Shown: one piece after another, positions 2,392-60,917 of the stretch
Numbering within the stretch: the first letter of the stretch is position 1
Layout of the letters: each line of letters opens with the position of its first letter
Source of the DNA: Paludibacteraceae bacterium
GTDB taxonomy: Bacteria; Bacteroidota; Bacteroidia; Bacteroidales; Paludibacteraceae
Assembly: GCA_051870995.1 (NCBI GenBank)
Contig: JBJECK010000036.1
Location: 4,742-68,741 of the forward strand
Length of the DNA: 64,000 nucleotides
Direction of reading: 5' to 3'
Program-made: the position numbers and the translations under genes
The notes under the pieces: generated by a model
The model's database searches: none
What the model was told of the DNA's origin: nothing
What the model saw: only the letters and a program-made list of their open reading frames with translations

Positions 2392-2425
2392 AGTGTATAT
2401 CTATCCGACGATTTCACATATAGTA
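2392..2425. repeat. 34-nt direct repeat, copy 2 (abuts the ATPase start codon)
   Basis: agtgtatatctatcCgacgatttcacatatagta lies directly adjacent to the ATG (complement of 2389..2391). Confidence 0.9.
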
Positions 2426-2495
2426 TTTAGTAGCAACATATTAGTAGTATATACTCATCTCACATCACATACCATCCATTTTCATCACACACCAC

Positions 2496-2537
2496 CCATT
2501 TCAAATTTTTGCGTATTGCGACAGAAATTTGAAATGG
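2496..2537. repeat. Palindromic element, copy A (13-bp arms, 16-nt loop)
   Basis: ccatttcaaattt-ttgcgtattgcgacag-aaatttgaaatgg has perfectly complementary arms. Confidence 0.85.
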
Positions 2538-2612
2538 TTTTTTCATCATTTCTTGCCTACGTATATACTTACGGCCGCAAAAATACAGATATTTTACGAC
2601 ATATCCAAATAT

Positions 2613-2652
2613 CCATTTCAAATTTTTGCATATTGCTACAAAAATTTGAAAT
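2613..2652. repeat. Palindromic element, copy B (11-bp arms)
   Basis: ccatttcaaattt-ttgcatattgctaca-aaaatttgaaat is near-identical to copy A and lies 117 nt downstream in the same orientation. Confidence 0.85.
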
Positions 2653-2786
2653 AACAATCACATACACTTCCGGAAAATAAGCAAGTAGATCATAGTTACA
2701 TCCCAAACATTTCGAGGATAGCAGAAAAACAGGCAAAAAAACTTGCATAACTCAGTTACCATCCCGGACACAACCAGTACACCCCG

Positions 2787-2871
2787 CCTTTATTGCGTCT
2801 TTTTTGCCCTTTATCAACCTTTTTCGGGCTTTTTGGAGTGTCTATAAAGGCAAAAAAAGACGCAATAAAGG
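2787..2871. repeat. Long inverted repeat (about 28-nt arms, 29-nt loop) downstream of the MFS transporter gene
   Basis: cctttattgcgtcttttttgccctttat (2787..2814) pairs with ataaaggcaaaaaaagacgcaataaagg (2844..2871) with one indel. A third partial copy, ataaagagcaaaaagacgc, lies at 2885..2903. Confidence 0.85.
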
Positions 2872-2998
2872 GGAAACAGCCCCGATAAAGAGCAAAAAGA
2901 CGCTCTGTAACAGAAAATTTGAACAAAGGCTATCCCGCTAACCAAACAAGGGAGCAAAGACAAACAGTCGGTTGTTTTTGCTCCTGGTTCCCTGCTCC

Positions 2999-4357
2999 TT
3001 ACTCCCTGCTCTTTTTTTCCTTAATCAGCAGGACGGAGGCGGCACCGAGGAGGAGGAGGATACCTGCCACCACGAGCATTCCCGCCTGCGAGTCGTTGCA
3101 GCAGCCTTTGAGCAGTACGCCGCCGAGCAGGGCTGCCACAATCTGCGGCAGGCAGATGGTGCAGTTGAAGAGCCCGAGGAGCGTGCCCATCTTGCTGCTT
3201 CCCTCAATGGCATTGGTGAAGAGCGTGAAAGGCAAAGCGAGCGTCGCCGCCCATGCTGCACCGATGAGTGCGTAACTGAGGAAAAGCAGGTACTGGTTGT
3301 GCACCCAAAAGACTGATATGAATCCTATTCCGCCGACAAGGAGAGAGAGGATATACGCCCCTTTGTTGCCCATCTTATGCTCGATGGCGGGCAGGAGAGC
3401 AGCCCACAAGAGGGAGCCGACTGCCTGCACGGCAAAGCATACACCCACCCAGTTGCCTGCATTCTGAAATGCCTCGGCAGCGGTGTTGGCACCGTCCCAA
3501 CCGAAGCAGAGGGAGGCGATGGCGCCGTTGGAGTAGGTCCACATATACATGAACGCCGCCCAGCAGAAGAACTGCACGAGTCCGATAGTAAGGAAAGCGC
3601 GGATGATACGCCCTGTATCCTCACTGCCTTCCTCCTTGGTCTGCGTTTCCTTAATGCCGTGGAACTCAGCGTACTCCTTGGGGTCCATCTCACGTACGGC
3701 GAAGAACGTATAGAGCACGCAGAGGATAAGGATAGCGGCACCGATGTAGAACGACCACTTGACGGAGTCGGGGATGACGCCCTCGGGTGCGGTATTGGCA
3801 AGCCCAATCCACGTGAAGAAGATGGGGAAGAGGTAGCCTACCAAGGAGCCTGCATTGCAGAGGGCGGACTGGATGGCATAGGCGGTACCTTTCTGCTCCT
3901 CGTTGACCATGTCGCCGACCATCATCTTGAAGGGCTGCATGGCGATATTGATAGAGGTATCAAGAAACATGAGGGAGAACAATCCGAACCACATGGCGGC
4001 ATTGAGCCCGAGGTAAACGCTTTGTTCGAAGGTGAAGTTGCCCGCATTGGGGAGGAGCACCATGACCGCGACGGCAATGACCGCACCTATAAGAAGATAG
4101 AACTTACGTCGTCCGAAGACCGGTCCGAGCCACGTTTTGTCGGATAGAAGCCCGATGAGCGGCTGCACAATCATACCCATGAGGGGCGGCAGGATCCAAA
4201 AGAAACTGAGTTGGTGCGGGTCAGCGCCCAGCGTGGCGAAGATGCGCGAGATGTTGGCAGACTGCAAAGCGTAGGCAATCTGCACGCCGAAGAAGCCGAA
4301 ACTGAGGTTGAACAATTGGGCGAACGAACGGTTGGTCTGTGTCGGGTTGTTTTTCAT
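2999..4357 (-). CDS. MFS sugar transporter, SLC45/GPH-like (probable maltose/maltodextrin-type permease)
   Basis: 452 aa and about 12 predicted TM segments. The N-terminus FAQLFNLSFGFFGVQIAYALQSANISRIF...LSDKT is typical of SLC45-family transporters found in Bacteroidota starch loci. Confidence 0.8.
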   Translation of the reverse strand: MKNNPTQTNRSFAQLFNLSFGFFGVQIAYALQSANISRIFATLGADPHQLSFFWILPPLMGMIVQPLIGLLSDKTWLGPVFGRRKFYLLIGAVIAVAVMVLLPNAGNFTFEQSVYLGLNAAMWFGLFSLMFLDTSINIAMQPFKMMVGDMVNEEQKGTAYAIQSALCNAGSLVGYLFPIFFTWIGLANTAPEGVIPDSVKWSFYIGAAILILCVLYTFFAVREMDPKEYAEFHGIKETQTKEEGSEDTGRIIRAFLTIGLVQFFCWAAFMYMWTYSNGAIASLCFGWDGANTAAEAFQNAGNWVGVCFAVQAVGSLLWAALLPAIEHKMGNKGAYILSLLVGGIGFISVFWVHNQYLLFLSYALIGAAWAATLALPFTLFTNAIEGSSKMGTLLGLFNCTICLPQIVAALLGGVLLKGCCNDSQAGMLVVAGILLLLGAASVLLIKEKKSRE

Positions 4358-4396
4358 TAGTATAGTATGTTTGTTAATATATTTGTCTTTTCCGGG

Positions 4397-4528
4397 GATG
4401 CCCGAGAGTCCGATGAGAGTCCGATAAATTGCCCTCGGGCAACTACCGCATATCCACAGCTTATCTACAGCTTATCCACCGCTGAATTTCCGCTATCGTC
4501 TCGTTATCGTTTCGTCATCACCTTGTGA
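4397..4528. repeat. 11-nt-period degenerate tandem array (12 units) in the 5' leader of the MFS transporter gene
   Basis: The units read gatgcccgaga gtccgatgaga gtccgataaat tgccctcgggc aactaccgcat atccacagctt atctacagctt atccaccgctg aatttccgcta tcgtctcgtta tcgtttcgtca tcaccttgtga. The register never slips. Confidence 0.85.
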
Positions 4529-4689: not shown

Positions 4690-4697
4690 TACCTTTG
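4690..4697 (+). promoter_or_regulatory. Bacteroidota -7 promoter box (TAccTTTG) for recQ
   Basis: tacctttg lies 107 nt upstream of the recQ ATG. Confidence 0.5.
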
Positions 4698-4803: not shown

Positions 4804-6987
4804 ATGAACGCGACCCACGAACAACTAATCGAAGCACTACAACACTACTTCGGATTCGACACATTCAAAGGCAACCAAGAGGCAATCATTCTCAATGTGA
4901 TGAACGGCAACGACACGTTCGTACTGATGCCTACGGGCGGCGGAAAGAGCCTCTGCTACCAACTTCCGTCGATGCTGATGGAGGGGACTGCTATCGTTAT
5001 CTCTCCCCTGATAGCCCTGATGAAGAACCAGGTAGATGCCATGCGCAACTACTCGGAGGAAGACGGCGTCGCGCACTTTATCAACTCGTCGCTCTCCCGT
5101 CCTGAGATAAATGCGGTCAAAGAGGACGTTATCTCGGGCAAAACGAAATTGCTCTACCTCGCCCCCGAGAGCCTGCAGAAGGCGGAAAACGTCGATTTCC
5201 TGAAGAATGTTACGATTTCGTTCTATGCCGTGGACGAGGCACATTGTATCTCCGAGTGGGGACACGATTTCCGTCCCGAATACGGGCATATCCGCGATAT
5301 GGTGAAGCGTATCGGCAAGGCGCCAATTATCGCCCTGACGGCTACGGCGACCCCGAAGGTGCAGAAAGACATTCAGAAGAACCTTGGCATGCTGGACGCG
5401 ACGGTTTTCAAGAGCTCGTTCAACCGCCCTAACCTCTACTACGAAGTACGCCCCAAGACCAACGACGTCAACAAAGACGTTATCAAATATATCCGCTCCA
5501 TGGAGGGCAAATCGGGCATTATTTATTGTCTCGCGCGCAAGGAGGTGGAAGACCTGGCGCAGACGCTGGTGGTCAACGGTATTTCCGCCCGCCCCTACCA
5601 TGCAGGCATGGACGCAGAGACCCGTAGCGCCAACCAAGACGCGTTTCTCATGGAGGAGTGCCAGGTGATAGTGGCTACCATAGCGTTCGGTATGGGTATC
5701 GACAAACCGGACGTGCGCTTCGTGATACACTACGATATACCAAAGTCGCTCGAGGGCTACTACCAAGAGACCGGGCGCGCCGGACGCGACGGCGGCGAGG
5801 GACAATGTATATGCTTCTACTCGCCCGACGACATAGAGCGCCTGCGCCGTTTCCAGCAGGGCAAGCCCGTCAAGGAGGTGGAAATAGGCAACCAGCTGCT
5901 CTTCGAGACGCAGTCGTATGCCGAATCGACTATCTGCCGCCGCAAACTGCTGATGCACTATTTCGGCGAGGAATATGAGGAGGACAACTGCGGCAACTGC
6001 GACAACTGCAAGAAGAACTACCGCATGATGGACGCCACCGAGCTGGTAGGGCTGATTCTGGAGACTATCGTTCAGGTGAACGAGAAATTCAAGGCGGAGC
6101 ATATCGTGGATATTCTCCACGGCAACGAAACGGCAGCCATAGTGAGCTACAAACATACCGGGCTGGAGAACTTCGGCGCGGCGGCGGATGTGGAAGAATC
6201 CACCCTGCACGCTATCATCCGACAGGCTATGCTCAACGGCTTTATCAATAAGGATATCGACTCCTACGGCGACCTCAAGATGACCTCCGACGGGCGAAAG
6301 TACATGAAGCGCCCCTCGAAGTTCGAAGTGCCAATTGAAGTGCACGACGAAGAGGCGGAGGATATCGACAACAACGTAGCTACCTGCGCCGCCGCAGACG
6401 ACGTGCTCTTCTCTATCCTGAAGGATGTGCGCAAGAAGCTGTCGAAGAAGTGCGACGTACCGCCGTTCGTCATCTTCCAAGACCCTTCGCTGGAGGCGAT
6501 GGCTACTACCTACCCCATCACGATGGAGGAGTTGCTGACCATCCCGGGCGTAGGGCAGAGCAAAGCCAAACGCTACGGCGACGAGTTCCTGCGCGTTATC
6601 AAGGAGTACGTGGACGAGAACGAGATCATCCGCCCCGAGGACCTGCGTATCCGCACTATCGCCAAGAAATCGACCCGCAAGAAGCAAATCATAGCCGCTA
6701 TCGACAGCCGCAAAGACCTCGACGACATCGCCGAATCCTACGGCATATCCATGGAGGAGATGCTGGACGAACTGGAGGCGATTGTCTTCTCCGGCACGAA
6801 GGTGAATATCAACTATTTCATCAAAGAGGTACTCGACCCCGACGAAGAAGAGGAGATTTACGACTATTTCAAGAACGCCGAAAGCGACAGCATCAAGGAC
6901 GCTATGGAAACGCTGGGGGAAGACGACTACGACGAGATACACGTGCGGCTGGTGCGCATCAAGTTCCATTGCGACCTCGGCAACTAA
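4804..6987 (+). CDS. recQ: ATP-dependent DNA helicase RecQ
   Basis: 727 aa with the motifs FGFDTFKGNQ, MPTGGGKSLCYQLP, DEAHCISEWGHDFRPEY and the zinc-binding CGNCDNC. An HRDC-like C-terminus follows. Confidence 0.95.
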   Translation: MNATHEQLIEALQHYFGFDTFKGNQEAIILNVMNGNDTFVLMPTGGGKSLCYQLPSMLMEGTAIVISPLIALMKNQVDAMRNYSEEDGVAHFINSSLSRPEINAVKEDVISGKTKLLYLAPESLQKAENVDFLKNVTISFYAVDEAHCISEWGHDFRPEYGHIRDMVKRIGKAPIIALTATATPKVQKDIQKNLGMLDATVFKSSFNRPNLYYEVRPKTNDVNKDVIKYIRSMEGKSGIIYCLARKEVEDLAQTLVVNGISARPYHAGMDAETRSANQDAFLMEECQVIVATIAFGMGIDKPDVRFVIHYDIPKSLEGYYQETGRAGRDGGEGQCICFYSPDDIERLRRFQQGKPVKEVEIGNQLLFETQSYAESTICRRKLLMHYFGEEYEEDNCGNCDNCKKNYRMMDATELVGLILETIVQVNEKFKAEHIVDILHGNETAAIVSYKHTGLENFGAAADVEESTLHAIIRQAMLNGFINKDIDSYGDLKMTSDGRKYMKRPSKFEVPIEVHDEEAEDIDNNVATCAAADDVLFSILKDVRKKLSKKCDVPPFVIFQDPSLEAMATTYPITMEELLTIPGVGQSKAKRYGDEFLRVIKEYVDENEIIRPEDLRIRTIAKKSTRKKQIIAAIDSRKDLDDIAESYGISMEEMLDELEAIVFSGTKVNINYFIKEVLDPDEEEEIYDYFKNAESDSIKDAMETLGEDDYDEIHVRLVRIKFHCDLGN

Positions 6988-7014
6988 TTATTAATTTGTA
7001 ATTGATAATTGGGC

Positions 7015-7043
7015 AAATCTTAAAAATAGAACATTTTGACCGC
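7015..7043. repeat. 29-nt direct repeat, copy a, flanking the rimO-upstream 11-nt array
   Basis: aaatcttaaaaatagaacattttgaccgc is 26/29 identical to 7120..7148. Confidence 0.85.
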
Positions 7044-7048
7044 TCGCG

Positions 7049-7103
7049 GGTTATACGCGGTCTATGCGCTGGTTATACGCGGTTTATACGCGGTGAATAG
7101 AAT
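7049..7103. repeat. 11-nt-period tandem array (5 units) upstream of rimO
   Basis: The units read ggttatacgcg gtctatgcgct ggttatacgcg gtttatacgcg gtgaatagaat. Confidence 0.85.
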
Positions 7104-7119
7104 GCGCCTGAAAGACCAA

Positions 7120-7148
7120 AAATCTTAATAATCGTACATTTTGACCGC
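7120..7148. repeat. 29-nt direct repeat, copy b
   Basis: aaatcttaataatcgtacattttgaccgc. Confidence 0.85.
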
Positions 7149-7164
7149 ACCGCCCGAAAACGAG

Positions 7165-7187
7165 ATATTAACTATTAATTATTAACT
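7165..7187 (+). promoter_or_regulatory. 23-nt A/T box atattaactattaattattaact, 6 nt upstream of the rimO GTG start
   Basis: It is identical (23/23) to the sequence on the - strand at 45325..45347, which lies 14 nt upstream of the fcl GTG start. Confidence 0.8.
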
Positions 7188-7193
7188 GTCCCC

Positions 7194-8507
7194 GTGCACA
7201 AAGGAGAGATTGACATAATCACGTTGGGGTGCTCCAAGAACCTCGTGGATGCCGAGCGGCTGATGCGCCGCTTGGAGGCTGCCGGCTGGCGTTGTGTCCA
7301 CGACGCGGAGAAGCCGAACGGCGAGATAGCCGTCATCAACACCTGCGGATTTATCGGCGATGCCAAGGAAGAGAGTATTCAGACCATCTTGGAGTTCGCC
7401 GCACGCAAGACGCACAAGCGGATGAAGAGGCTGTATGTCATGGGCTGCCTCAGCGAACGCTATCTGCACGAGCTGGAGGAAGAAATACCTGAGGTGGATA
7501 GCTGGTACGGCAAGTTCGACTTTATGGGGCTTGCAGATGCTATCGGGACGGCAGCTGAGGCGGAGCAGGCAGGCTGTCTGGCGCCCTACGAACGCACGCT
7601 GACCACGCCGAACCATTACGCTTATCTGAAGATATCCGAGGGTTGCAACCGCTATTGCTCCTATTGCGCCATCCCGCTTATTACGGGCAAGCATACCTCG
7701 CGCCCCGAAGAAGAGATACTGGACGAGGTGCGTTGGCTCGTCGGACAAGGGGTGAAAGAGCTGAATATCATCGCGCAGGACTTGTCCAGCTACGGACTCG
7801 ACCTATACGGAGAACATCGCTTGCCGCAGTTGGTGGAAGCAATAGCCCAAACGCAGGGTGTCGAATGGATCAGGCTCCACTACGCCTACCCGACCGACTT
7901 CCCCGAGCAACTGCTGGACGTGATGGCGCGTTACCCGAACGTATGCAAGTACTTGGACATAGCGCTCCAACATTGCTCCGACCACATGCTCGGGCTGATG
8001 CGCCGCCATATCACCCGTACCGAACAAGATGCGCTCATACGCCATATCCGCGAGGCTGTGCCGGGCATCTGCATCCGCACCACGCTCCTCGTGGGACACC
8101 CGGGAGAGACGGAAGAAGACTTCGAAGAACTGAAGGCTTGGGTGCGCCTGATGCGCTTCGACCGCATGGGAGCCTTCGCCTACTCTGACGAAGAGGGCAC
8201 GTATGCCAACCGCCATTATACCGACGACATACCGCAAGCCGTCAAAGAACAACGCGTAGCGGAGATAATGGCGATACAGCAGGATATATCCCGCGAACTG
8301 CAGGAAACCAAGGTAGGGTGCGTTGAAAGGGTGATTATCGACCGCGAGGAGGGGGATTACTACGTGGGACGGACGCAGTACGATTCGCCGGAGGTGGACT
8401 GCGAAGTGTTGATAGACAAGCGAGAAATGCTCCGCCCGGGGACTTTCTACAACGTAGAAATAACGAAGGCGGAAGAATTTGACCTGTACGGACAGGTAAA
8501 ACATTGA
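7194..8507 (+). CDS. rimO: Ribosomal protein S12 methylthiotransferase RimO (radical SAM)
   Basis: 437 aa with an N-terminal IDIITLGCSKNLVD...INTCGF motif, the radical-SAM motif CNRYCSYC and a TRAM-like C-terminus. The start is GTG. Confidence 0.9.
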   Translation: MHKGEIDIITLGCSKNLVDAERLMRRLEAAGWRCVHDAEKPNGEIAVINTCGFIGDAKEESIQTILEFAARKTHKRMKRLYVMGCLSERYLHELEEEIPEVDSWYGKFDFMGLADAIGTAAEAEQAGCLAPYERTLTTPNHYAYLKISEGCNRYCSYCAIPLITGKHTSRPEEEILDEVRWLVGQGVKELNIIAQDLSSYGLDLYGEHRLPQLVEAIAQTQGVEWIRLHYAYPTDFPEQLLDVMARYPNVCKYLDIALQHCSDHMLGLMRRHITRTEQDALIRHIREAVPGICIRTTLLVGHPGETEEDFEELKAWVRLMRFDRMGAFAYSDEEGTYANRHYTDDIPQAVKEQRVAEIMAIQQDISRELQETKVGCVERVIIDREEGDYYVGRTQYDSPEVDCEVLIDKREMLRPGTFYNVEITKAEEFDLYGQVKH

Positions 8508-16473: not shown

Positions 16474-16494
16474 AGATGTACACCTGTTAATCAC

Positions 16495-16593
16495 GTAGGA
16501 TATACGTAAGATATACGTAGGATACACGGAAGATAACCGAGATACAACCGAGAGATGCGCGAGAGACAACCGACACAATAAAAATATACTATG
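16495..16593. repeat. 11-nt-period tandem array (9 units) running up to and including the rhuM ATG
   Basis: The units read gtaggatatac gtaagatatac gtaggatacac ggaagataacc gagatacaacc gagagatgcgc gagagacaacc gacacaataaa aatatactatg. Confidence 0.85.
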
Positions 16594-28200: not shown

Positions 28201-29121
28201 TTAAAAACAATAACAGAACCCTGCACGTACAGAAGCACTATACAGCGTTGCATTCAAGTGGAACATACCCGTCGGTTTGCATTCCGCCTCCGCCAAGACC
28301 CGCCAATGGTTATCCACATCATAGCGACCGCCAAGCATAAAGATAGGCTGCCACATACGCTCCATCTGGAAGTCATCCACGTTGGCGATACAAGCCGATA
28401 TATTCCAGTTGCACGTCTGCGGACGGCAAAAGACCTCCAAACGATAGAGCAGATTAAAGGGCTCTATATTGTATGTCTCGGTAGTGTGCCAGTCTCTATC
28501 CCACGAACTCATCACACGCCCGAACATACCGATATTCAAAGATACATAGTCCATCCTATATCCTACCGACAAAGCCGCACAGAAGTCGCCCTGACGGTTG
28601 CGGGCTACGGCACGATAAAGCAACTCCGTTTCAAGAAACAATTCGCCCGCGGGCAAAGCAAACTTCGGACGCAATACCGCCGCACCCGTATAAACTGCCG
28701 CAGAAGACAACTGCACATTCGCTTGCATTTCAAAGTAAGGATTGATTGGCATCAACGCTCGGATATCGACATTTCCCATGTGCCCCCACGTGCGGTTGTA
28801 GGCATACTCGCCCATAATACCCAGTTGGTAACGCGACTCTCCAAAGCCGCGTAAGGAATGCCCGTCTTTGGCTATATACTCGGTCGGGGAAGCTGCGGTT
28901 GCGACCCAAGCAAGGCAAATGGCTATGAGACTAAGGCAGGCTCGCTTGATACCCAAAAGCAACAGGAAGGTAGTGCATTCTCTCGGCGAAGACAGCTCTC
29001 GTTGCCGTGTCGTTGCCGTGTCGTTGCCGTGTTTTTGCCGTAATCGACCGCTTATCGACCGCTTATCGACCGCTAATTGTCGGCTTTGATTTCTCATATA
29101 TTCTTCTAATTCGATTTTCAT
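28201..29121 (-). CDS. Outer-membrane beta-barrel protein (uncharacterised); the start is uncertain
   Basis: Alternating amphipathic strands and a C-terminal ...GFCYCF (terminal Phe) fit a beta-barrel. The first 40 or so codons of the longest ORF are encoded by an 11-nt tandem array. The signal-like segment KRACLSLIAICLAWVATAASP starts near 28960 and only in-frame TTG codons precede it. The true start is probably about 28950-28965. Confidence 0.5.
   Translation of the reverse strand: MKIELEEYMRNQSRQLAVDKRSISGRLRQKHGNDTATTRQRELSSPRECTTFLLLLGIKRACLSLIAICLAWVATAASPTEYIAKDGHSLRGFGESRYQLGIMGEYAYNRTWGHMGNVDIRALMPINPYFEMQANVQLSSAAVYTGAAVLRPKFALPAGELFLETELLYRAVARNRQGDFCAALSVGYRMDYVSLNIGMFGRVMSSWDRDWHTTETYNIEPFNLLYRLEVFCRPQTCNWNISACIANVDDFQMERMWQPIFMLGGRYDVDNHWRVLAEAECKPTGMFHLNATLYSASVRAGFCYCF
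29000..29087. repeat. 11-nt-period tandem array (8 units) between the mutS2 stop and the OMP signal peptide
   Basis: The units read cgttgccgtgt x3, ttttgccgtaa, tcgaccgctta x2, tcgaccgctaa, ttgtcggcttt. Confidence 0.9.
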
Positions 29122-31425
29122 TTAGGGTATGGTTACTATGGTGTAGCCCGCTCCGCCTCGATCGGGGTCTCCGTCCTTGAACAGCAAAGGGGCGTCTCCG
29201 CGCTTGCGCAGTTGCTTGTTGCGCGCCTCAAGGTGCTCACGCACGACCTGTTTGAGTGCTCCCGTACCCGTTCCGTGGAGAATAGTAACCTCGCCGGCAT
29301 TCACCATTATGGCGTCGTCCATGTAGGCAATCAAGCGCTCCAATGCCTCGTCGGCACGCATCCCGCGCAAGTCGAGTGTGCGCTCGAACGACAAGACCCG
29401 TTGGCGAATGGTATTGCGCATCACGGGATTACTGACGGGCAGGTCTTTGCTTATTCCTTTGAGTTCGCGGAAATCGTGGAGGACTTGCTTTTTGCGCGGC
29501 TCTTTCTCCACCGGAATGGGCGTTACTTCCCGCTTCATTTTCTCAACCCGCGCACGCGCTTGCAGGGTTTGCTGCTTGTTTGCCTTTGCTTCTTTAATCT
29601 CGCGAATGGTTCGTTCGATAGTCGCATTACTTGCCTGCAAGAGTTCAGCCGCCTGTTTCTTTGCTTCGTCCAGCATCTCGCGTTGTTTCTTCTTCAGCCC
29701 CGCAATCTCTTGCTCGTAATAAGCAATCCGCTCTTCGAGATGTTTCTCACGTTGTCGAACCGCTTGCCGCTTGTTTTCCCAATAGCGCTTGTCGCGCGCT
29801 ATATCCTGCAACTGTTTGTCGTAGTCGATATGCTCTTCGCCTACCAAGTCGGTTGCATGCGCTATAATCGTCTCGGGGAGACCGATTTGGCGCGCTATCT
29901 CTACGGCAAAACTACTTCCCGCCTGCCCAATACTGAGTTGGAAAAGCGGCTTCATCTGCCCGCGGTCGTAGAGCATAGCACCATTCACGACTCCTGCTGT
30001 ACTTTCCGCGAAGTGTTTCAGATTGGTATAGTGCGTCGTAATCACTCCGAAAGCCTGCTGCGCCACGAGTTGCGCCAAAACCGCCTCTGCTATAGCTCCG
30101 CCGATAAGCGGCTCCGTGCCTGTGCCGAACTCGTCTATCAACAACAACGTTTCCGCATCAGCGTTGCGCACGAACACCTTCATATTGCGCAGGTGGCTGG
30201 AATAGGTTGACAAATCGTCCTCAATAGATTGTTCGTCTCCGATATCAATCATTATTTGCCGAAAAATACCCATTCGGCTCGTCTCCGCGAAGGGCACAAG
30301 CAAGCCACATTGCACCATATACTGCAAAAGTGCGACCGTTTTGAGGCAGACCGACTTTCCTCCCGCGTTCGGTCCACTAATGACCAGCAACCTGTTTTCG
30401 TTCGCCTGCAAGCGTATAGAAAGAGGAACAACCTGCTTGCCCTGCTGCTGAAACTTAAGGAACAAGACCGGGTGACGCGCTTCTTGCCAGTCAATCAAAG
30501 GCGTATCCGCTATTTCGGGACGAATGGCATGCAGGGTCTGCGCCAGCAAAGCCTTGGCACGCAGGAAGTCCACATACGCCAACATCCGCTCTGTCTCCAT
30601 TATCACAGGCACATTGGGGCGAAGGACAGCCGTCAGTTCTTGCAAGATACGCAAGCGTTCACGGCGCTCTGCGCCCTCCAACTCACGGATACGGTTGTTC
30701 GCCTCCACAACCTGTTGCGGCTCGACATAAACCGTTTTTCCCGTTGCCGACTCGTCGTGGACTATACCGCCAATCTTGCGTTTGTACGCGGGTGGCACAG
30801 GAATAACCAAGCGCCCTTCGCGCAAGGTAGGCGCACTATCCTTCTCCACTATCCCTTCTGCTTGGGCTTGGCGCAATATCTGATTGAGCACGCGCCCGAC
30901 ACTACTCTGCGCCAGCGTCAACTCGTGGCGGATGCGCCCCAACTCGGGCGAAGCGTTGTCCGCCAAACGCCCGTATTTGTCAATCGTGCGGTCAATCAGC
31001 CGCACTATGTCTCCGAGGCTCAGGAAGTCCGATGAGCGTCCGTTGAGAGTCCGAACAGCATGCAAGCGCGGAAAACGCGCCTCGTCCAAAGACGCAAAGA
31101 ACGCTTCCAACCGCCCGGCGTAGTCGATGGTTTGGCGCAAGGAGAACAACTCTGCCTCGTCCAAGAACAAGCCCTCTATACGAATGCGCGCCAGCGCCTC
31201 ACGCAGGTCGTGAATCTCTCCGCGGGGAAATGCTAACGAGCCGTCCTCGAGCACGCGCTTCATCTCGTCGGTCTCGGACAACAAACCAACTATATCTTCA
31301 TAGCCGGTCAGGAACGACATCGCATCCACTTGCTCCCTGCCCAAGAGGGAAGCACACCGTTTGCGCAACTCGTCACGCAAGACGCAGAAGTCAATTTTTT
31401 GCTCTATATTATCCGGATAAATCAC
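29122..31425 (-). CDS. mutS2: Endonuclease MutS2 (MutS domain plus C-terminal Smr)
   Basis: 767 aa with Walker A GPNAGGKS, DEFGTGTEP and a C-terminal Smr domain (LDLRGMRADEAL...ILHGTGTGALK). Confidence 0.95.
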   Translation of the reverse strand: MIYPDNIEQKIDFCVLRDELRKRCASLLGREQVDAMSFLTGYEDIVGLLSETDEMKRVLEDGSLAFPRGEIHDLREALARIRIEGLFLDEAELFSLRQTIDYAGRLEAFFASLDEARFPRLHAVRTLNGRSSDFLSLGDIVRLIDRTIDKYGRLADNASPELGRIRHELTLAQSSVGRVLNQILRQAQAEGIVEKDSAPTLREGRLVIPVPPAYKRKIGGIVHDESATGKTVYVEPQQVVEANNRIRELEGAERRERLRILQELTAVLRPNVPVIMETERMLAYVDFLRAKALLAQTLHAIRPEIADTPLIDWQEARHPVLFLKFQQQGKQVVPLSIRLQANENRLLVISGPNAGGKSVCLKTVALLQYMVQCGLLVPFAETSRMGIFRQIMIDIGDEQSIEDDLSTYSSHLRNMKVFVRNADAETLLLIDEFGTGTEPLIGGAIAEAVLAQLVAQQAFGVITTHYTNLKHFAESTAGVVNGAMLYDRGQMKPLFQLSIGQAGSSFAVEIARQIGLPETIIAHATDLVGEEHIDYDKQLQDIARDKRYWENKRQAVRQREKHLEERIAYYEQEIAGLKKKQREMLDEAKKQAAELLQASNATIERTIREIKEAKANKQQTLQARARVEKMKREVTPIPVEKEPRKKQVLHDFRELKGISKDLPVSNPVMRNTIRQRVLSFERTLDLRGMRADEALERLIAYMDDAIMVNAGEVTILHGTGTGALKQVVREHLEARNKQLRKRGDAPLLFKDGDPDRGGAGYTIVTIP

Positions 31426-37349: not shown

Positions 37350-37469
37350 CCCTTATGTTGAGCGTCCTAACAAGATTTGGCACGATAATTGAACAATAGA
37401 TTGTGTATGCGCTTCGGAAGACATAGCGCATATCGGCAACCACTCATTAACTATTAAAACTTTTGTATT

Positions 37470-38801
37470 ATGAAACGTTTGGTATCTTTTCTATTTGCAT
37501 TGCTGCTCGTAGGGGGCATGACAATGCGGGCAGACGAAACGATAACCGTTTCTGCCAACAGCTCAGACATTTCCGACGGGCTGGATCTCAAAGTGGTAGC
37601 TAAGTTGTTCGCGCAAGCCAAAGACTTGGAAGAATTTGAGACGCTACTCAATAACCCCGACTCCGCTTTCTGCAATTTAGACCTCAACGGAGACGGAATG
37701 GTAGATTATATCCGCGTGGTGGAGACCGGAGAAAGCAACAAGCGGCTGGTGCTGCTCCAAGCCATCTTGGCGAAGGACATCTATCAGGATGTAGCAACTA
37801 TCTACGTAGAGAAATCCGCTGAAGAGAAAGTGTCAGTGCAGGTAGTCGGCGATGAGTATATCTACGGCAAGAACTATATCATCGAGCCCGTCTATGTTTA
37901 TCGCCCGATAATCTATGATTGGTTCTGGGGTCCGACATGGTATGCTTGGTCATCGCCGTGGTATTGGGGATATTATCCGTCTTGGTGGTATGCGCATTCA
38001 CTGTGGGCATATGATGCCTATTGGCACCACTGCTATACATTCCATCACCGCCACCCATATTGCAGTTTCCATTACGCACGCGAGCCGCGCCCGGCTATCC
38101 GTGATATGCGCGCAGGAATCAGCCGGAGGGACTACGCTGCTGCCCACCCCACCCGCTCGTTCGAGCATCGTAACGCAGGGGTAAACAATGTACGAGACAT
38201 GCGCTCTACGCGCACTCAGGTGGCGGCAACACGCAACAGCGCAGCGGGTGTATCTACCCGTCAGGCAGCAACGGGAGCGACACGGTCTTCCGTACACCAA
38301 TCATCTGATGGACAAGCAACGGCAAGCACGCGCAGCACGGCTGCAAGCCGCACCTTCGGAAGCCAAAATACGGCAGCGGCACGCACCAGCACAGCTACCC
38401 GTACAAGTGCCACGACACGTACTGCTTCTGCTGCAACAACACGGACAGGTGCAGCTTCAACAACGACACGCACGCCGGCTTATACAACTACTACAACACG
38501 CACAGCGGCTACAGGTAGCAGCACGCGCACAGCGGCTTCCACGCCGACACGGGTGAACAATTCAGCGGCAACAACTACCACCCGCAGCAATGTCAGTTCC
38601 TCGACGCATACCCGTAGTACATACAACGGCAGTTATAATGCGCCTGCAACGACACGCAGCAGCTACGATAGCGGTAGCACACGTAGCACCGGCAGCTACA
38701 ACCATGGCGGCAGTTACGGCGGTAGCACACGCAGCAGTGGCAGTTATGGTGGAGGTAGCACACGTGGAGGTGGATATAGTGGCGGAAGTACACGCAGGTA
38801 A
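37470..38801 (+). CDS. Secreted protein with an EF-hand-like loop, an extreme Trp/Tyr/His block and a long R/S/T/A/G/Y low-complexity tail
   Basis: The signal peptide is MKRLVSFLFALLLVGGMTMRA and the DxNxDGxxD loop is DLNGDGMVDY. The aromatic block is IYDWFWGPTWYAWSSPWYWGYYPSWWYAHSLWAYDAYWHHCYTFHHRHPY. A tail of about 220 aa made of TR/STR/SYGG units follows. Confidence 0.6.
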   Translation: MKRLVSFLFALLLVGGMTMRADETITVSANSSDISDGLDLKVVAKLFAQAKDLEEFETLLNNPDSAFCNLDLNGDGMVDYIRVVETGESNKRLVLLQAILAKDIYQDVATIYVEKSAEEKVSVQVVGDEYIYGKNYIIEPVYVYRPIIYDWFWGPTWYAWSSPWYWGYYPSWWYAHSLWAYDAYWHHCYTFHHRHPYCSFHYAREPRPAIRDMRAGISRRDYAAAHPTRSFEHRNAGVNNVRDMRSTRTQVAATRNSAAGVSTRQAATGATRSSVHQSSDGQATASTRSTAASRTFGSQNTAAARTSTATRTSATTRTASAATTRTGAASTTTRTPAYTTTTTRTAATGSSTRTAASTPTRVNNSAATTTTRSNVSSSTHTRSTYNGSYNAPATTRSSYDSGSTRSTGSYNHGGSYGGSTRSSGSYGGGSTRGGGYSGGSTRR

Positions 38802-44368: not shown

Positions 44369-45310
44369 TTATCTCTCCGCACGCATGGGGTTGTGGAGGA
44401 AGTCGGCATAGGCGAGGCGAATGCCGTCTTCGAGTTCGGTTTTGTATGTCCAGCCCAAAGCCGTTGCTTTGGATACATCCAAGAGTTTGCAGGGTGTGCC
44501 GTTGGGGCGCGTGGTATCCCAGAGGATTTGCCCTTCGTAGCCAATGACCTTGGCGACGAGTTCCGTCAGTTGCTTGATAGTCAGTTCTTTGCCTGTTCCT
44601 GCATTGACGGTCTCGTTGCCGGAGTAGTGGCTCATCAAGAATACACAGAGGTTGGCAAGGTCGTCCACATAGAGGAACTCGCGCAAGGGTGAGCCGTCGC
44701 CCCAACAAGTAACCGACTCGGCGTGCGCCTCCTTCGCCTCGTGGAAGCGGCGGATGAGGGCAGGGAGTACGTGGGAGTGCTCGGGGTGGTAGTTGTCGTT
44801 GGGTCCGTAGAGGTTGGTGGGCATGACGGAGATATAGTCAGTACCGTACTGGCGGTTGAGGAACTCGCAGTATTTGAGTCCGGAAATCTTAGCCAAGGCA
44901 TACGCCTCGTTGGTCTTCTCCAACTCTCCGGTGAGGAGGCAACTCTCCGTCATAGGCTGCGGGGCAAGGCGCGGATAGATACAAGACGAGCCAAGGAACT
45001 CCAATTTCTTGCAGCCGTTCTGCCACGCGGCGTGGATGACGTTCATTTCGAGTATCATGTTGTCGTACATAAAGTCGGCGAGGGCGTTTTGGTTGGCAAC
45101 AATGCCCCCCACTTTCGCCGCGGCGAGGAAGACGTACTCCGGCTTCTCCTGCGCGAAAAACGCCTCTACCGCATCCTGACGGCAAAGGTCCAACTCCTTG
45201 TGCGTGCGCGTGATGATATTGGTGTAGCCCTGACGCTGCAACTCGCGCACAATAGCAGAGCCCACCATTCCACGGTGACCCGCTACGTATATCTTGCTTT
45301 GTTTCTCCAC
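44369..45310 (-). CDS. fcl: GDP-L-fucose synthase (GDP-4-keto-6-deoxy-D-mannose 3,5-epimerase/4-reductase)
   Basis: IYVAGHRGMVGSAIVREL...VFLAAAKVGGI...SSCIYP...YALAKI are present. The start is GTG at 45310. Confidence 0.95.
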   Translation of the reverse strand: MEKQSKIYVAGHRGMVGSAIVRELQRQGYTNIITRTHKELDLCRQDAVEAFFAQEKPEYVFLAAAKVGGIVANQNALADFMYDNMILEMNVIHAAWQNGCKKLEFLGSSCIYPRLAPQPMTESCLLTGELEKTNEAYALAKISGLKYCEFLNRQYGTDYISVMPTNLYGPNDNYHPEHSHVLPALIRRFHEAKEAHAESVTCWGDGSPLREFLYVDDLANLCVFLMSHYSGNETVNAGTGKELTIKQLTELVAKVIGYEGQILWDTTRPNGTPCKLLDVSKATALGWTYKTELEDGIRLAYADFLHNPMRAER

Positions 45311-45324
45311 AATAACAGTTAAAT

Positions 45325-45347
45325 AGTTAATAATTAATAGTTAATAT
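45325..45347 (-). promoter_or_regulatory. 23-nt A/T box atattaactattaattattaact (second copy), 14 nt upstream of the fcl GTG start
   Basis: The reverse complement of 45325..45347 is identical to 7165..7187. Confidence 0.8.
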
Positions 45348-45356
45348 TTCATTGCG

Positions 45357-45499
45357 GCACTCGGTATCGGTGCGGTATTGTCCCGGTATCGGTTCGTGAA
45401 TCACCCACTAATCACATACTAATCACCCACTCTTGGCTCGGCATCGTCTCGGTATCGATTCGGTAATCACCCGATAATCACCCGATAATCACCCGATAA
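45357..45499. repeat. 11-nt-period degenerate tandem array (13 units) in the gmd-fcl spacer
   Basis: The units read gcactcggtat cggtgcggtat tgtcccggtat cggttcgtgaa tcacccactaa tcacatactaa tcacccactct tggctcggcat cgtctcggtat cgattcggtaa, then tcacccgataa x3. There is no register slip. Confidence 0.9.
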
Positions 45500-45601
45500 A
45501 GACAGGTAAGGGACTCGGGGAAGAATAGAAGGGAGTCAGATGCCGCTGCGCGGTGGGACGTGCAGGAGCAGCGTCCCTCCATCGAGGTAACCGGCAGATA
45601 C

Positions 45602-46705
45602 CTATTTGACAATTCCTTTCTCCAAGTACTCCGCCAAGTTGGTGCGCGCCTGCTCTGCGGCGTGGTCGGCTGCGACCTTGCGCATATCCAACTGCACCAT
45701 GAGGCGTACCAACTGCTCGAACGTGGTTTTGCCCGGGTTCCATCCCAACTCCTTGCGCGCCTTGGCGGGGTCTCCCCAGAGGTTGACCACATCGGTTGGG
45801 CGGTAGAAGTCGGGAGAGACCTCGACAAGGGTCTTACCTACAAGGTGGGCAGGTCCTGCGGTGCAGACACCCTTCTCGTTCTGTCCCTCGCCATCGAAAC
45901 GGAGCGTGATGCCGACCTCACGGAATGCGAGGTCGCAGAACTCGCGCACGGAGTGCTGCACGCCGGTGGCGATGACAAAGTCCTCGGGGGTGTCGTGCTG
46001 GAGGATGAGCCACATGCACTCGACATAGTCCTTGGCATAACCCCAGTCGCGCAGCGAAGAAAGGTTGCCGAGGTAGAGTTTGTCCTGCTTGCCCTGCGCG
46101 ATACGCGCCGCCGCGAGGGTGATTTTGCGGGTGACAAATGTCTCGCCGCGGCGCTCGGACTCGTGGTTGAAGAGGATGCCGGAGCAGCAGAACATGTTGT
46201 ACGCCTCGCGGTACTCCTTGACAATCCAGTAGCCGTAGAGTTTGGCGACGGCGTATGGCGAATAGGGGTGGAAAGGCGTGTTCTCATTCTGCGGGACTTC
46301 CTCGACCTTGCCGTAGAGTTCGGACGTGGACGCCTGGTAGATGCGGCAGGTGTCGGTCAGACCGCATGCGCGCACCGCCTCCAAGATACGCAAAACGCCG
46401 GTAGCATCAATATTCGCCGTATATTCAGGGGAGTCGAAACTAACTTGCACGTGGGATTATGCCGCAAGGTTGTAGATCTCGTCGGGACGCACCTTGCCGA
46501 TGACTTGGATGAGTCCCATGGAATCGGAGAGGTCGCCGTAGTGGAGGTGGAAATGAGGTTGCCCCTCGAGGTGGGCGATGCGCTCGCGGTAGTCCACCGA
46601 CGAACGGCGGATGATGCCGTGGACATCGTATCCCTTGTCCAACAGGAACTCGCTCAGGTAAGAGCCGTCTTGTCCTGTTACTCCCGTGATTAAAGCTGTC
46701 TTCAT
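45602..46705 (-). pseudogene. gmd: GDP-mannose 4,6-dehydratase interrupted by a single in-frame TAA (codon 83)
   Basis: The two co-linear, in-frame ORFs 46457..46705 and 45602..46450 together read ...[22 protein letters not shown].... Gmd orthologues have NLAAQSHV here, so CAA has become TAA at 46457..46459. The rest of the gene is intact ([25 protein letters not shown]). Confidence 0.85.
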
Positions 46706-46730
46706 ATCCTATTGGTTAAATAATTTATTG

Positions 46731-46738
46731 CAAAGGTA
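46731..46738 (-). promoter_or_regulatory. -7 promoter box (TAccTTTG) for gmd
   Basis: caaaggta on the + strand lies 26 nt upstream of the ATG at 46705. Confidence 0.5.
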
Positions 46739-51947: not shown

Positions 51948-52019
51948 TGTCCAATGGTATAAAGGCTATTACGTCAGATTTTGGTTCTGAAAATCCTGGT
52001 TCGATTCCGGGTTGGACAA
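51948..52019 (+). tRNA. tRNA-Gln (anticodon UUG)
   Basis: I folded the cloverleaf by hand. The acceptor is tgtccaa/ttggaca with a U1:A72 pair and the D stem is gta/tac. The anticodon stem is tcaga/tctga with loop tt-TTG-gt. The T arm is cctgg-ttcgatt-ccggg. CCA is not encoded. Confidence 0.8.
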
Positions 52020-52027
52020 CAAAACAA

Positions 52028-59536: not shown

Positions 59537-59602
59537 GTTTATAAAGCATTTATAAAGCGTTTATAAACCATTAGAATCTATATAAACAGAACACAAAATA
59601 TG
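59537..59602. repeat. 11-nt-period tandem array (6 units) running into the tcdA ATG
   Basis: The units read gtttataaagc atttataaagc gtttataaacc attagaatcta tataaacagaa cacaaaatatg. Confidence 0.8.
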
Positions 59603-60805: not shown

Positions 60806-60917
60806 AAAATTTTAATAGTTTCGTTTAGTGGCTGAGCAGGTAAGTTCCTCCATGGAGTCCTTCACTCGTCTCAGGCATTCACCCTAATAAAGTCAATAAG
60901 TGTGCCAACCGACGAAT

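Follow-up and report, generated by a model that had tools for sequence, protein, structure and literature searches.

In a 64,000-nucleotide stretch of DNA from a Paludibacteraceae bacterium (assembly GCA_051870995.1, contig JBJECK010000036.1, positions 4,742 to 68,741 of the forward strand; referred to here as the window), the same 23-nt A/T-rich sequence, ATATTAACTATTAATTATTAACT, stands just before the start codons of two unrelated genes, rimO and fcl. A preliminary description of this DNA had proposed, among other functions, that this box assists translation initiation in a phylum that lacks Shine-Dalgarno (SD) sites, and this is the reading that we find best supported. We propose, with somewhat better than even confidence, that the box is a run of tandem heptamers serving as an SD-independent translation-initiation leader, an unstructured landing or standby site ahead of the start codon.

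The two copies of the box match exactly over all 23 positions, at 7165 to 7187 on the forward strand and 45325 to 45347 on the reverse strand, and end 6 nt short of the rimO GTG and 14 nt short of that of fcl, just as first described. No third match is present in the window at up to three mismatches, and 100 dinucleotide-preserving shuffles of the window gave no match to the 23-mer. Similarity between the copies continues for 6 further bases upstream with 2 mismatches (27/29, AAYGARATATT...) and then ends. The box had been presented as a distinct type of motif; Tandem Repeats Finder (TRF) instead resolves it as a period-7 tandem repeat, with 3.1 copies at rimO (7166 to 7187) and 4.7 copies at fcl (45313 to 45346). 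At rimO it reads AT followed by ATTAACT-ATTAATT-ATTAACT, a "split" three-unit heptamer array. The count at fcl is higher because the heptad run goes on degenerately to the GTG (ATTTAACT GTTATT, 45311 to 45324 on the reverse strand). With its period of 7, the box is therefore the same sort of object as the 11-nt arrays that occur upstream of it, its unit, though, being A/T-rich.

For the RNA of the box by itself, the predicted minimum free energy (MFE) is 0.0 kcal/mol, and the same value was obtained for five copies of its unit. It contains no ATG, GTG or TTG in any frame, and its TAA stop is present in all three frames, as 7 is not a multiple of 3. The gaps between box and start codon, GTCCCC at rimO and ATTTAACTGTTATT at fcl, contain no GGAGG.

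Both copies lie in intercistronic spacers, one between recQ and rimO and the other between gmd and fcl. The −7 promoter motif TACCTTTG is found upstream of recQ (4690 to 4697, forward strand) and upstream of gmd (46731 to 46738, reverse strand), at the inferred promoters of a recQ-rimO and a gmd-fcl transcript, and neither a TAnnTTTG motif nor a terminator-like site was found in the recQ-rimO spacer (6988 to 7193) or in the gmd-fcl spacer (45348 to 45601). Both boxes are thus probably part of intercistronic RNA ahead of the second cistron. Canonical TTTG...TAnnTTTG promoters of the Bacteroidota type occur repeatedly in the window. In folds of the whole spacers, the box is unpaired in both the MFE and the centroid structures at rimO and in the centroid structure at fcl, and within each spacer the GC-rich arrays pair among themselves; the overall stability of the spacers is not unusual relative to shuffled controls (z = 0.42 and −0.53).

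The rimO gene (7194 to 8507, forward strand) encodes a 437-aa protein with UPF0004, radical SAM and TRAM domains in Pfam, and fcl (44369 to 45310, reverse strand) encodes a 313-aa epimerase of the GDP-L-fucose synthase type, as judged by Pfam and by the names of its homologues. The GTG starts of the two genes, that of fcl being at 45310, each align with the start codon of orthologues. The preliminary description had tied the box to this codon, an association that turns out to be coincidental: starts downstream of the box elsewhere are nearly always ATG, and rimO in relatives begins with ATG, GTG or TTG irrespective of whether the box is there, which led us to discard the link.

Outside the window, we found the exact 23-mer in 61 metagenome stretches, mostly from a few assemblies, with GC contents of 0.36 to 0.54. 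The taxonomy of these contigs is inferred from promoter motifs and composition, open reading frames (ORFs) in the fetched loci were called mechanically, and the orientation statistics take in related contigs. In 57 non-redundant contexts, the sequences flanking the 23-mer are unrelated except for a purine-rich −2/−1 position, as the flanks in the window also are, and the box is not the end of some longer shared element, an outcome that the preliminary description had considered. The split form, with ATTAATT as its second unit, recurs throughout these 57 different contexts, and most of them have a fourth unit after the 23-mer (ATTAACT in 30 of 57, ATTAATT in 11). The placement relative to genes, which the preliminary description had suggested examining, is not random: an ATG-opened ORF begins within 40 nt downstream of the 23-mer in the sense orientation in 25 cases and in the antisense orientation in 8 (p = 0.005), and the sense distance from box to ATG is typically 11 to 22 nt. 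That the two window copies are identical reflects a favored sequence form in wide use, rather than common operon descent or a mobile element.

A scan of reference genomes with ATTAACTATTAAYTATTAACT, in which the middle unit is degenerate (ATTAAYT), returned at least 120 loci, at least 15 of which have the ATTAATT-containing form seen in the window. Among the matches listed, cyanobacteria, Ignavibacteria, Planctomycetes, Bacteroidales and others have (ATTAACT)n arrays, frequently adjoined by other NNNNACT heptamer arrays, and the exact 23-mer is present in one metagenome-assembled genome (MAG) titled Paludibacteraceae and in one titled Bacteroidales. For the 131 arrays among the matches listed, an ORF of at least 100 aa opens within 60 nt downstream on the same strand in 41 cases and on the opposite strand in 22 (p = 0.02), and a start lies within 20 nt of the array in sense in 27 cases and in antisense in 8 (p = 0.002).

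Constraint was assessed at two sets of loci at which the box recurs before the same gene. In six contigs, the box precedes rpsF, where it lies downstream of a conserved TTTG...TAccTTTG promoter. The order is promoter, then a hypervariable stretch with indels and small arrays, then an invariant AAATATTAACTATTAATTATTAACTATTAACTAATCAAA(A)CATT-ATG. Because the box falls between the promoter and the ATG, its sequence context puts it inside this ribosomal-protein gene's 5′ untranslated region (UTR). The second set is a family of seven copies of a gene for a 104-aa basic protein, which we call MAKIDY, whose upstream DNA is unrelated from copy to copy while they have in common a 42-nt leader that begins with the box's first base and extends to the ATG. 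Among the six type-1 genes, this leader is 99.2% identical, compared with 77.7% over all positions of the first 33 codons, 62.4% at the third positions of those codons and 43.0% in the 60 nt upstream of the leader. In this gene family, then, the box is far more conserved than the neighboring synonymous sites. At three of the MAKIDY loci, the TAA stop of the upstream gene overlaps the first bases of the box, and the box ends 16 nt before the ATG, so that a promoter cannot be accommodated there and a role in the mRNA is indicated. The number of units is constant, at four, in all rpsF and MAKIDY loci.

The MAKIDY proteins themselves (loci L144, L169, L172, L176, L189, L192 and L141) are about 104 aa long and read MAKIDY(S/A)FPVE..HGKISKKHK, with a paralogue beginning MAKITPMDLVK...; the genes are often in tandem, each preceded by the invariant 42-nt heptad leader. 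The small protein has no significant match in Pfam or PHROGs.

These observations fit what is known of initiation in this phylum. In Bacteroidetes, ribosomes do not use SD pairing, and initiation is tuned by low mRNA structure, by upstream A and by a scarcity of AUG around the start (Baez et al. 2019, PMC6847099). Where initiation depends on an unstructured, A-rich, AUG-free region, the heptad run would supply 23 to 40 nt of such unstructured, AUG-free RNA immediately 5′ of the cistron start and, in the window, after a GC-rich spacer full of self-pairing arrays. The box could then offer the 30S subunit a place to land or stand by and so raise or tune initiation, possibly read by S1 or by an RRM-type A/U-binding protein, and its UAA triplets in three frames would halt translation entering from upstream. 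RbpB of Bacteroides prefers A/U-rich RNA around ribosome-binding sites (RBSs), and the Bacteroides small RNAs (sRNAs) GibS and FopS act on translation-initiation regions (PMC11697453). The product of rpsF, bS6, has been named as one of the proteins that sequester the anti-SD.

The two loci of the window can be compared with those of relatives. The nearest RimO homologues, 79 to 81% identical, come from MAGs named Paludibacteraceae. Two contigs from other samples encode the exact RimO, and their recQ-rimO spacer is 100% identical to ours and hence uninformative on variation; a look-up of the exact Fcl sequence returned no match. In each of four syntenic relatives (RimO 77 to 81% identical), the recQ-rimO spacer contains short-period arrays whose unit is different in every one, so that, judging by these spacers, arrays persist at this place while their sequence changes. 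At the same position in contig L126, ATGTTAATTATTACTTGTTAATT, 18/23 identical to the box, precedes a rimO TTG start; it is the only match to the box at up to five mismatches in about 160 kb of relatives' DNA.

Several points weigh against an initiation leader. The box is absent from the orthologous position in three of the four RimO relatives, and the closest Fcl relative (L127, 94% identical, with the same gmd-fcl layout) shares part of the array region and lacks the box, its fcl having a different A/T-rich leader and an ATG start. As relatives without the box manage with generic A-rich leaders, the exact box appears from these comparisons to be lineage-specific at both loci and dispensable. 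The suggestion in the preliminary description that the leader is functionally constrained is supported by the MAKIDY family; at rimO and fcl, the box is not conserved in most close relatives. In the window, only 2 of about 50 genes have the full box (2 more have short echoes), and the leaders of the remaining genes are generic and A/C-rich. Position −3 of rimO is C, where A is the favored base. Elsewhere, about a quarter of the instances are antisense to the nearest start and some are 250 to 300 nt from it, and when redundant contexts are collapsed the metagenome orientation bias falls to about 15 sense versus 7 antisense (p = 0.13). That the box is transcribed in this organism, and that it affects translation at all, we infer. 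Finally, generic unstructuredness leaves the recurrence of one exact sequence unexplained.

We advance a more specific form of the proposal tentatively, as a possibility that we would not favor at present: the leader may be a portable, sequence-specific, SD-independent module of rumen and gut Bacteroidales that is recognized by a dedicated trans-factor (a protein or an sRNA), kept letter-perfect by selection before dozens of unrelated genes per genome, rpsF included, and gained or lost at single genes on short timescales. If so, the heptamer-repeat leaders of Beggiatoaceae, Cyanobacteria and Bacteroidota would together represent one general, uncharacterized mode of start-site selection.

The main rival, which we nevertheless consider unlikely, is that the box is a slippage product tolerated without positive function, with the shared 23-mer being a common mutational end state and heptamer arrays surviving only where they are harmless, that is, in non-coding leaders and with units that bring neither start codons nor structure. 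The absence of the box at both loci from most close relatives and the fast turnover of neighboring arrays fit this explanation, as does the comparison of L153 (13210 to 13232) with L156 (4232 to 4254), near-identical loci with a length difference of exactly two heptads (14 nt) immediately behind the box, which is direct evidence of slippage-type length change. Heptanucleotide repeats are also, according to Mrazek 2007 as relayed in PMC4679880, the commonest class of long simple sequence repeats (SSRs) in bacteria and linked to polymerase slippage.

A harmlessness filter would also fit the kinds of heptamer that abut starts. In loci of relatives that were not selected for the box, other A/T-rich heptamer arrays end 5 to 10 nt before starts, for example TCTTAAT in L124 and TCATAAT in L125. 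These two, together with TAATTCC (likewise from relatives), ATTAACT and the published TAACTGA (5/5), fall into one class, defined by the lack of a canonical start trinucleotide, stops in every frame, no predicted structure in five copies and an A/T content of at least 5/7. Of 2344 heptamer necklaces, 532 are A/T-rich and the class takes in 118 of these, and the membership of all five observed heptamers in this "safe" class suits a filter as well as it suits a function. Mere tolerance, however, does not readily account for a leader that is 99% identical beside synonymous sites at 62% in seven diverged gene copies with unrelated upstream DNA, for four units fixed in all rpsF and MAKIDY loci, for the split form with ATTAATT second in 57 different contexts or for the bias toward the sense orientation.

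A rather less probable alternative is that the box is a sequence-specific mRNA site for a dedicated RNA-binding protein or sRNA, which would make rpsF, rimO and fcl members of a post-transcriptional regulon instead of carriers of a constitutive enhancer. Letter-for-letter identity across unrelated genes and taxa exceeds what generic unstructuredness needs, the conserved block is sharply bounded by the first base of the box and the ATG, and precedents exist both in the action of GibS, FopS and RbpB at initiation regions (PMC11697453) and in the S1, Csp or CsrA-like binders that MacGregor suggested for TAACTGA repeats (PMC4679880). Against such a site, there is no candidate factor and no complementary sequence in the window, the copies of the box being complementary to each other at the DNA level alone; the genes downstream share no functional theme, and relatives lack the site at the same genes. 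A known RNA family, be it a riboswitch, leader or sRNA, was ruled out by the absence of Rfam matches: Rfam 15 gave no match at E ≤ 1 in either window spacer and, at gathering score, nothing over the box in the window or in 15 box-bearing loci.

A DNA-level element acting on transcription of the downstream gene, whether promoter- or UP-like, an operator or a nucleoid-protein site, is highly improbable. The box is indeed A/T-rich and partly palindromic (TTAAnnATTAATnnTTAA), is sometimes antisense to the adjacent start and, in a sigma-70-type scan whose consensus is not applicable to this phylum, carries a weak −10-like hexamer. It lacks, however, the Bacteroidota sigma-ABfr −7 element TAnnTTTG (with TTTG about 20 nt further upstream), it lies downstream of the promoter at rpsF, it is biased to the sense strand, and the three MAKIDY loci at which it begins within the upstream stop codon offer no space for a promoter plus leader. 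An origin as a mobile-element footprint or terminus, or as a recombination site copying itself before genes, is similarly improbable: an identical, sharply 5′-bounded sequence does occur at loci where relatives have none, and a reverse partner resembling that of a miniature inverted-repeat transposable element (MITE) lies within 200 nt upstream of 21 of 131 forward arrays in other phyla (among the matches listed), but similarity between the window copies stops at 29 nt, there are no terminal inverted repeats or target duplications, an inverted partner accompanies 0 of 63 Bacteroidales-type instances, flanks are unrelated in the 57 contexts, and phage contigs almost never carry the 23-mer. A link to phage was accordingly not supported, viral contigs yielding 1 match to the 23-mer and 9 to the perfect-repeat version.

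The reverse AGTTAAT arrays of other phyla are an observation in their own right. Compared with the 21 forward (ATTAACT)n arrays that have one upstream (L020, L094, L052, L009, L037 and 16 other loci), only 1 has one downstream (among the matches listed), and the reverse/forward pair often encloses a GC-rich hairpin that immediately follows the stop of the upstream gene. This layout does not occur in the window.

The arrays that accompany the box were part of the preliminary description, which placed an 11-nt array 10 to 60 nt upstream of both copies. This holds at fcl, where four adjoining 11-nt arrays with differing units (45362 to 45499, reverse strand) begin 14 nt 5′ of the box; at rimO, the array (consensus CGCGGTTTATA, 4.5 copies, 7045 to 7094, forward strand) ends 70 nt 5′ of it. 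A composite leader of array, box and start was also proposed. The layout does recur, at rpsF and more widely: of 59 contexts, 19 have other short-period arrays no more than 120 nt upstream of the box (downstream, 11 of 58 have them), but in the window the box accompanies only 2 of about 7 array-bearing spacers. Tandem arrays with an 11-nt period, each with a different unit, are found in many intergenic spacers of the window (4404 to 4519, 7045 to 7094, 16493 to 16573, 28999 to 29074, 31026 to 31054, 45362 to 45499 and 59538 to 59572), and 11-mers with a GTGATTA core lie near the box in the unrelated contigs L127, L163, L173 and L187.

Partial copies of the box were noted as well. A stretch of under two units, ATTAACTATTAA, lies at 37446 to 37457 on the forward strand, 12 nt 5′ of the ATG at 37470, close to the position of about 37445 reported for an echo; six matches of this type at up to one mismatch occur in the window, with 0.22 expected, and the echo is beyond chance. 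A 9-nt echo, AACTATTAA, is located at 60812 to 60820 on the reverse strand, 6 nt 5′ of the hsp20 ATG (60805). The 8-mer echo reported near 4375 (4373 to 4380) did not hold up and is within chance, with 4 found, 1.9 expected and at least 4 in 10 of 100 shuffles.

The recQ-rimO spacer has further features. A second A/T heptad run, TAATTAT TAATTTG TAATTGA TAATTGG (6986 to 7012), begins inside the recQ stop and forms a local A/U hairpin of its own; a long-range hairpin between the box and these TAATTnn heptads was considered and rejected, as the heptads pair with themselves and the box is unpaired. Two copies of a roughly 27-nt motif, AATCTTAAnAAT..ACATTTTGACCGC, flank the 11-nt array (7014 to 7043 and 7119 to 7148), and the duplication is found likewise in the relative L123 (6675 to 6822), where 10 nt separate the second copy from the GTG. 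The motif might represent a weak promoter-like element (ACATTTTG) or mark a duplication junction.

Upstream of fcl, which is intact, gmd (45602 to 46708, reverse strand) is broken by an in-frame TAA at 46457 to 46459, in place of the conserved Gln of NLAAQSHV (...IYNLAA*SHVQVSF), into ORFs of 82 and 282 aa; a pseudogene, a sequencing error and recoding are all possible explanations. Elsewhere in the window are a DUF805b RNA motif (Rfam RF02914, 47505 to 47539, forward strand; 37.6 bits against a gathering score of 35.6), a tRNA-Gln gene (anticodon TTG, 51948 to 52020, forward strand), a 62-nt direct repeat that is 79% identical (1060 to 1121 and 2378 to 2439) on both sides of a reverse-strand gene of 416 aa and, within an A/T-rich region from 2400 to 3000, a 40-nt direct repeat (93%; 2496 to 2535 and 2613 to 2652) and a 28-nt inverted repeat (93%; 2787 to 2871).

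At some loci outside the window, conserved segments follow the box. In the Paludibacteraceae-type contigs L061, L068, L165, L179 and L185, it is followed by a conserved hairpin (CCCGCCCTCGGGCG); in L061, L068 and L165, a leader of 250 to 300 nt with many small GC hairpins then leads to a secreted-protein gene (MKKILSI...), has no Rfam match and may be an undescribed structured leader. In L145, L162 and L193, what follows the box is GTTAACTTATTATGGTGGCAGAGCA...CCGCCACC, a conserved segment that contains a GGTGGC/GCCACC stem, lies downstream of a TAnnTTTG motif and may be an sRNA; at gathering score, Rfam gave no match to it.

The way in which Bacteroidia ribosomes select start codons in the absence of SD pairing is only partly understood, and the box is a natural, compact leader that recurs exactly before unrelated genes, inside operons and directly before the start. 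If functional, it would be a useful expression part for the engineering of Bacteroides and Prevotella and a first functional handle on the heptamer-repeat leaders described in 2015. If it is instead a tolerated slippage product, it shows which repeat units selection permits beside start codons.

Several known systems resemble the box in part. Cyanobacterial short tandemly repeated repetitive (STRR) arrays are period-7 intergenic tandem arrays with a phylogenetically scattered distribution. Heptanucleotide SSRs (Mrazek 2007, as cited in PMC4679880) are likewise period-7, intergenic and scattered. Arrays of both kinds are usually long and have no fixed relation to starts, whereas the box is a short array directly adjoining starts, its length invariant at conserved loci. 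Phase-variable SSRs in 5′ UTRs, such as the AGAT repeats of Moraxella uspA2 (cited in PMC4679880) and those of Haemophilus (PMC12721329), are, like the box, tandem repeats between promoter and start, and their copy number can shift by slippage, as in the two-unit difference between L153 and L156. They precede surface antigens, whereas the box has few units and housekeeping genes downstream, and we found no copy-number variation at the window loci (two other samples, identical spacer) or within the rpsF and MAKIDY sets.

The box also invites comparison with translational enhancers. The "epsilon" sequence of the phage T7 gene 10 leader, UUAACUUUA, is a short A/U-rich translational enhancer upstream of a start; it is present as a single copy, acts together with an SD and has been proposed to pair with 16S rRNA. 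The sequence of this leader and the term "translational enhancer" are given in PMC9324987. Epsilon and the box share a UUAACU core, which we regard as a lead only; neither the window nor the fetched loci contain a 16S rRNA gene. Closer to home, the SD-independent initiation regions of Bacteroidia are A-rich, weakly structured and AUG-depleted (PMC6847099), and the box has all three properties. The determinants recognized there lie in nucleotides at given positions (A at −3 and others) and in the structure as a whole, whereas the box is a repeated heptamer and a fixed 23-mer.

The nearest counterpart is the TAACTGA heptamer direct repeats described by MacGregor in 2015 in Beggiatoaceae, Cyanobacteria and five Bacteroidetes, including Paludibacter propionicigenes (PMC4679880), a member of the same family as the nearest relatives of the window. 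These repeats are intergenic and mostly forward, end about 1 nt before start codons that lack an RBS, have 2 to 6 copies (36 sets being "split" by a related 7-mer) and are found on about 3% of genes; their RNA is predicted to be unstructured with stops in all frames, and they precede unrelated genes, ribosomal-protein genes among them (PMC4679880). S1, Csp or CsrA-like proteins were put forward as their readers, as proposals only (PMC4679880). We found no follow-up to the TAACTGA repeats in the literature and no paper giving an ATTAACT repeat this role. The box likewise consists of tandem 7-nt units split by a related 7-mer, is intergenic, forward and near starts, and has predicted unstructured RNA, all-frame stops and no canonical RBS before the start. 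It differs in that its unit, ATTAACT/ATTAATT, corresponds to TAACTAT/TAATTAT in the TAACTGA register and is at best 5/7 identical, in that a fixed form of 23 to 42 nt recurs exactly across taxa, and in that arrays of another period, 11 nt here, often precede it. Because it shares the compared defining features of the TAACTGA-type repeats except the unit sequence, we class the box as a sequence variant of them and not a member, and the evidence of purifying constraint (99% versus 62%) is new relative to that work.

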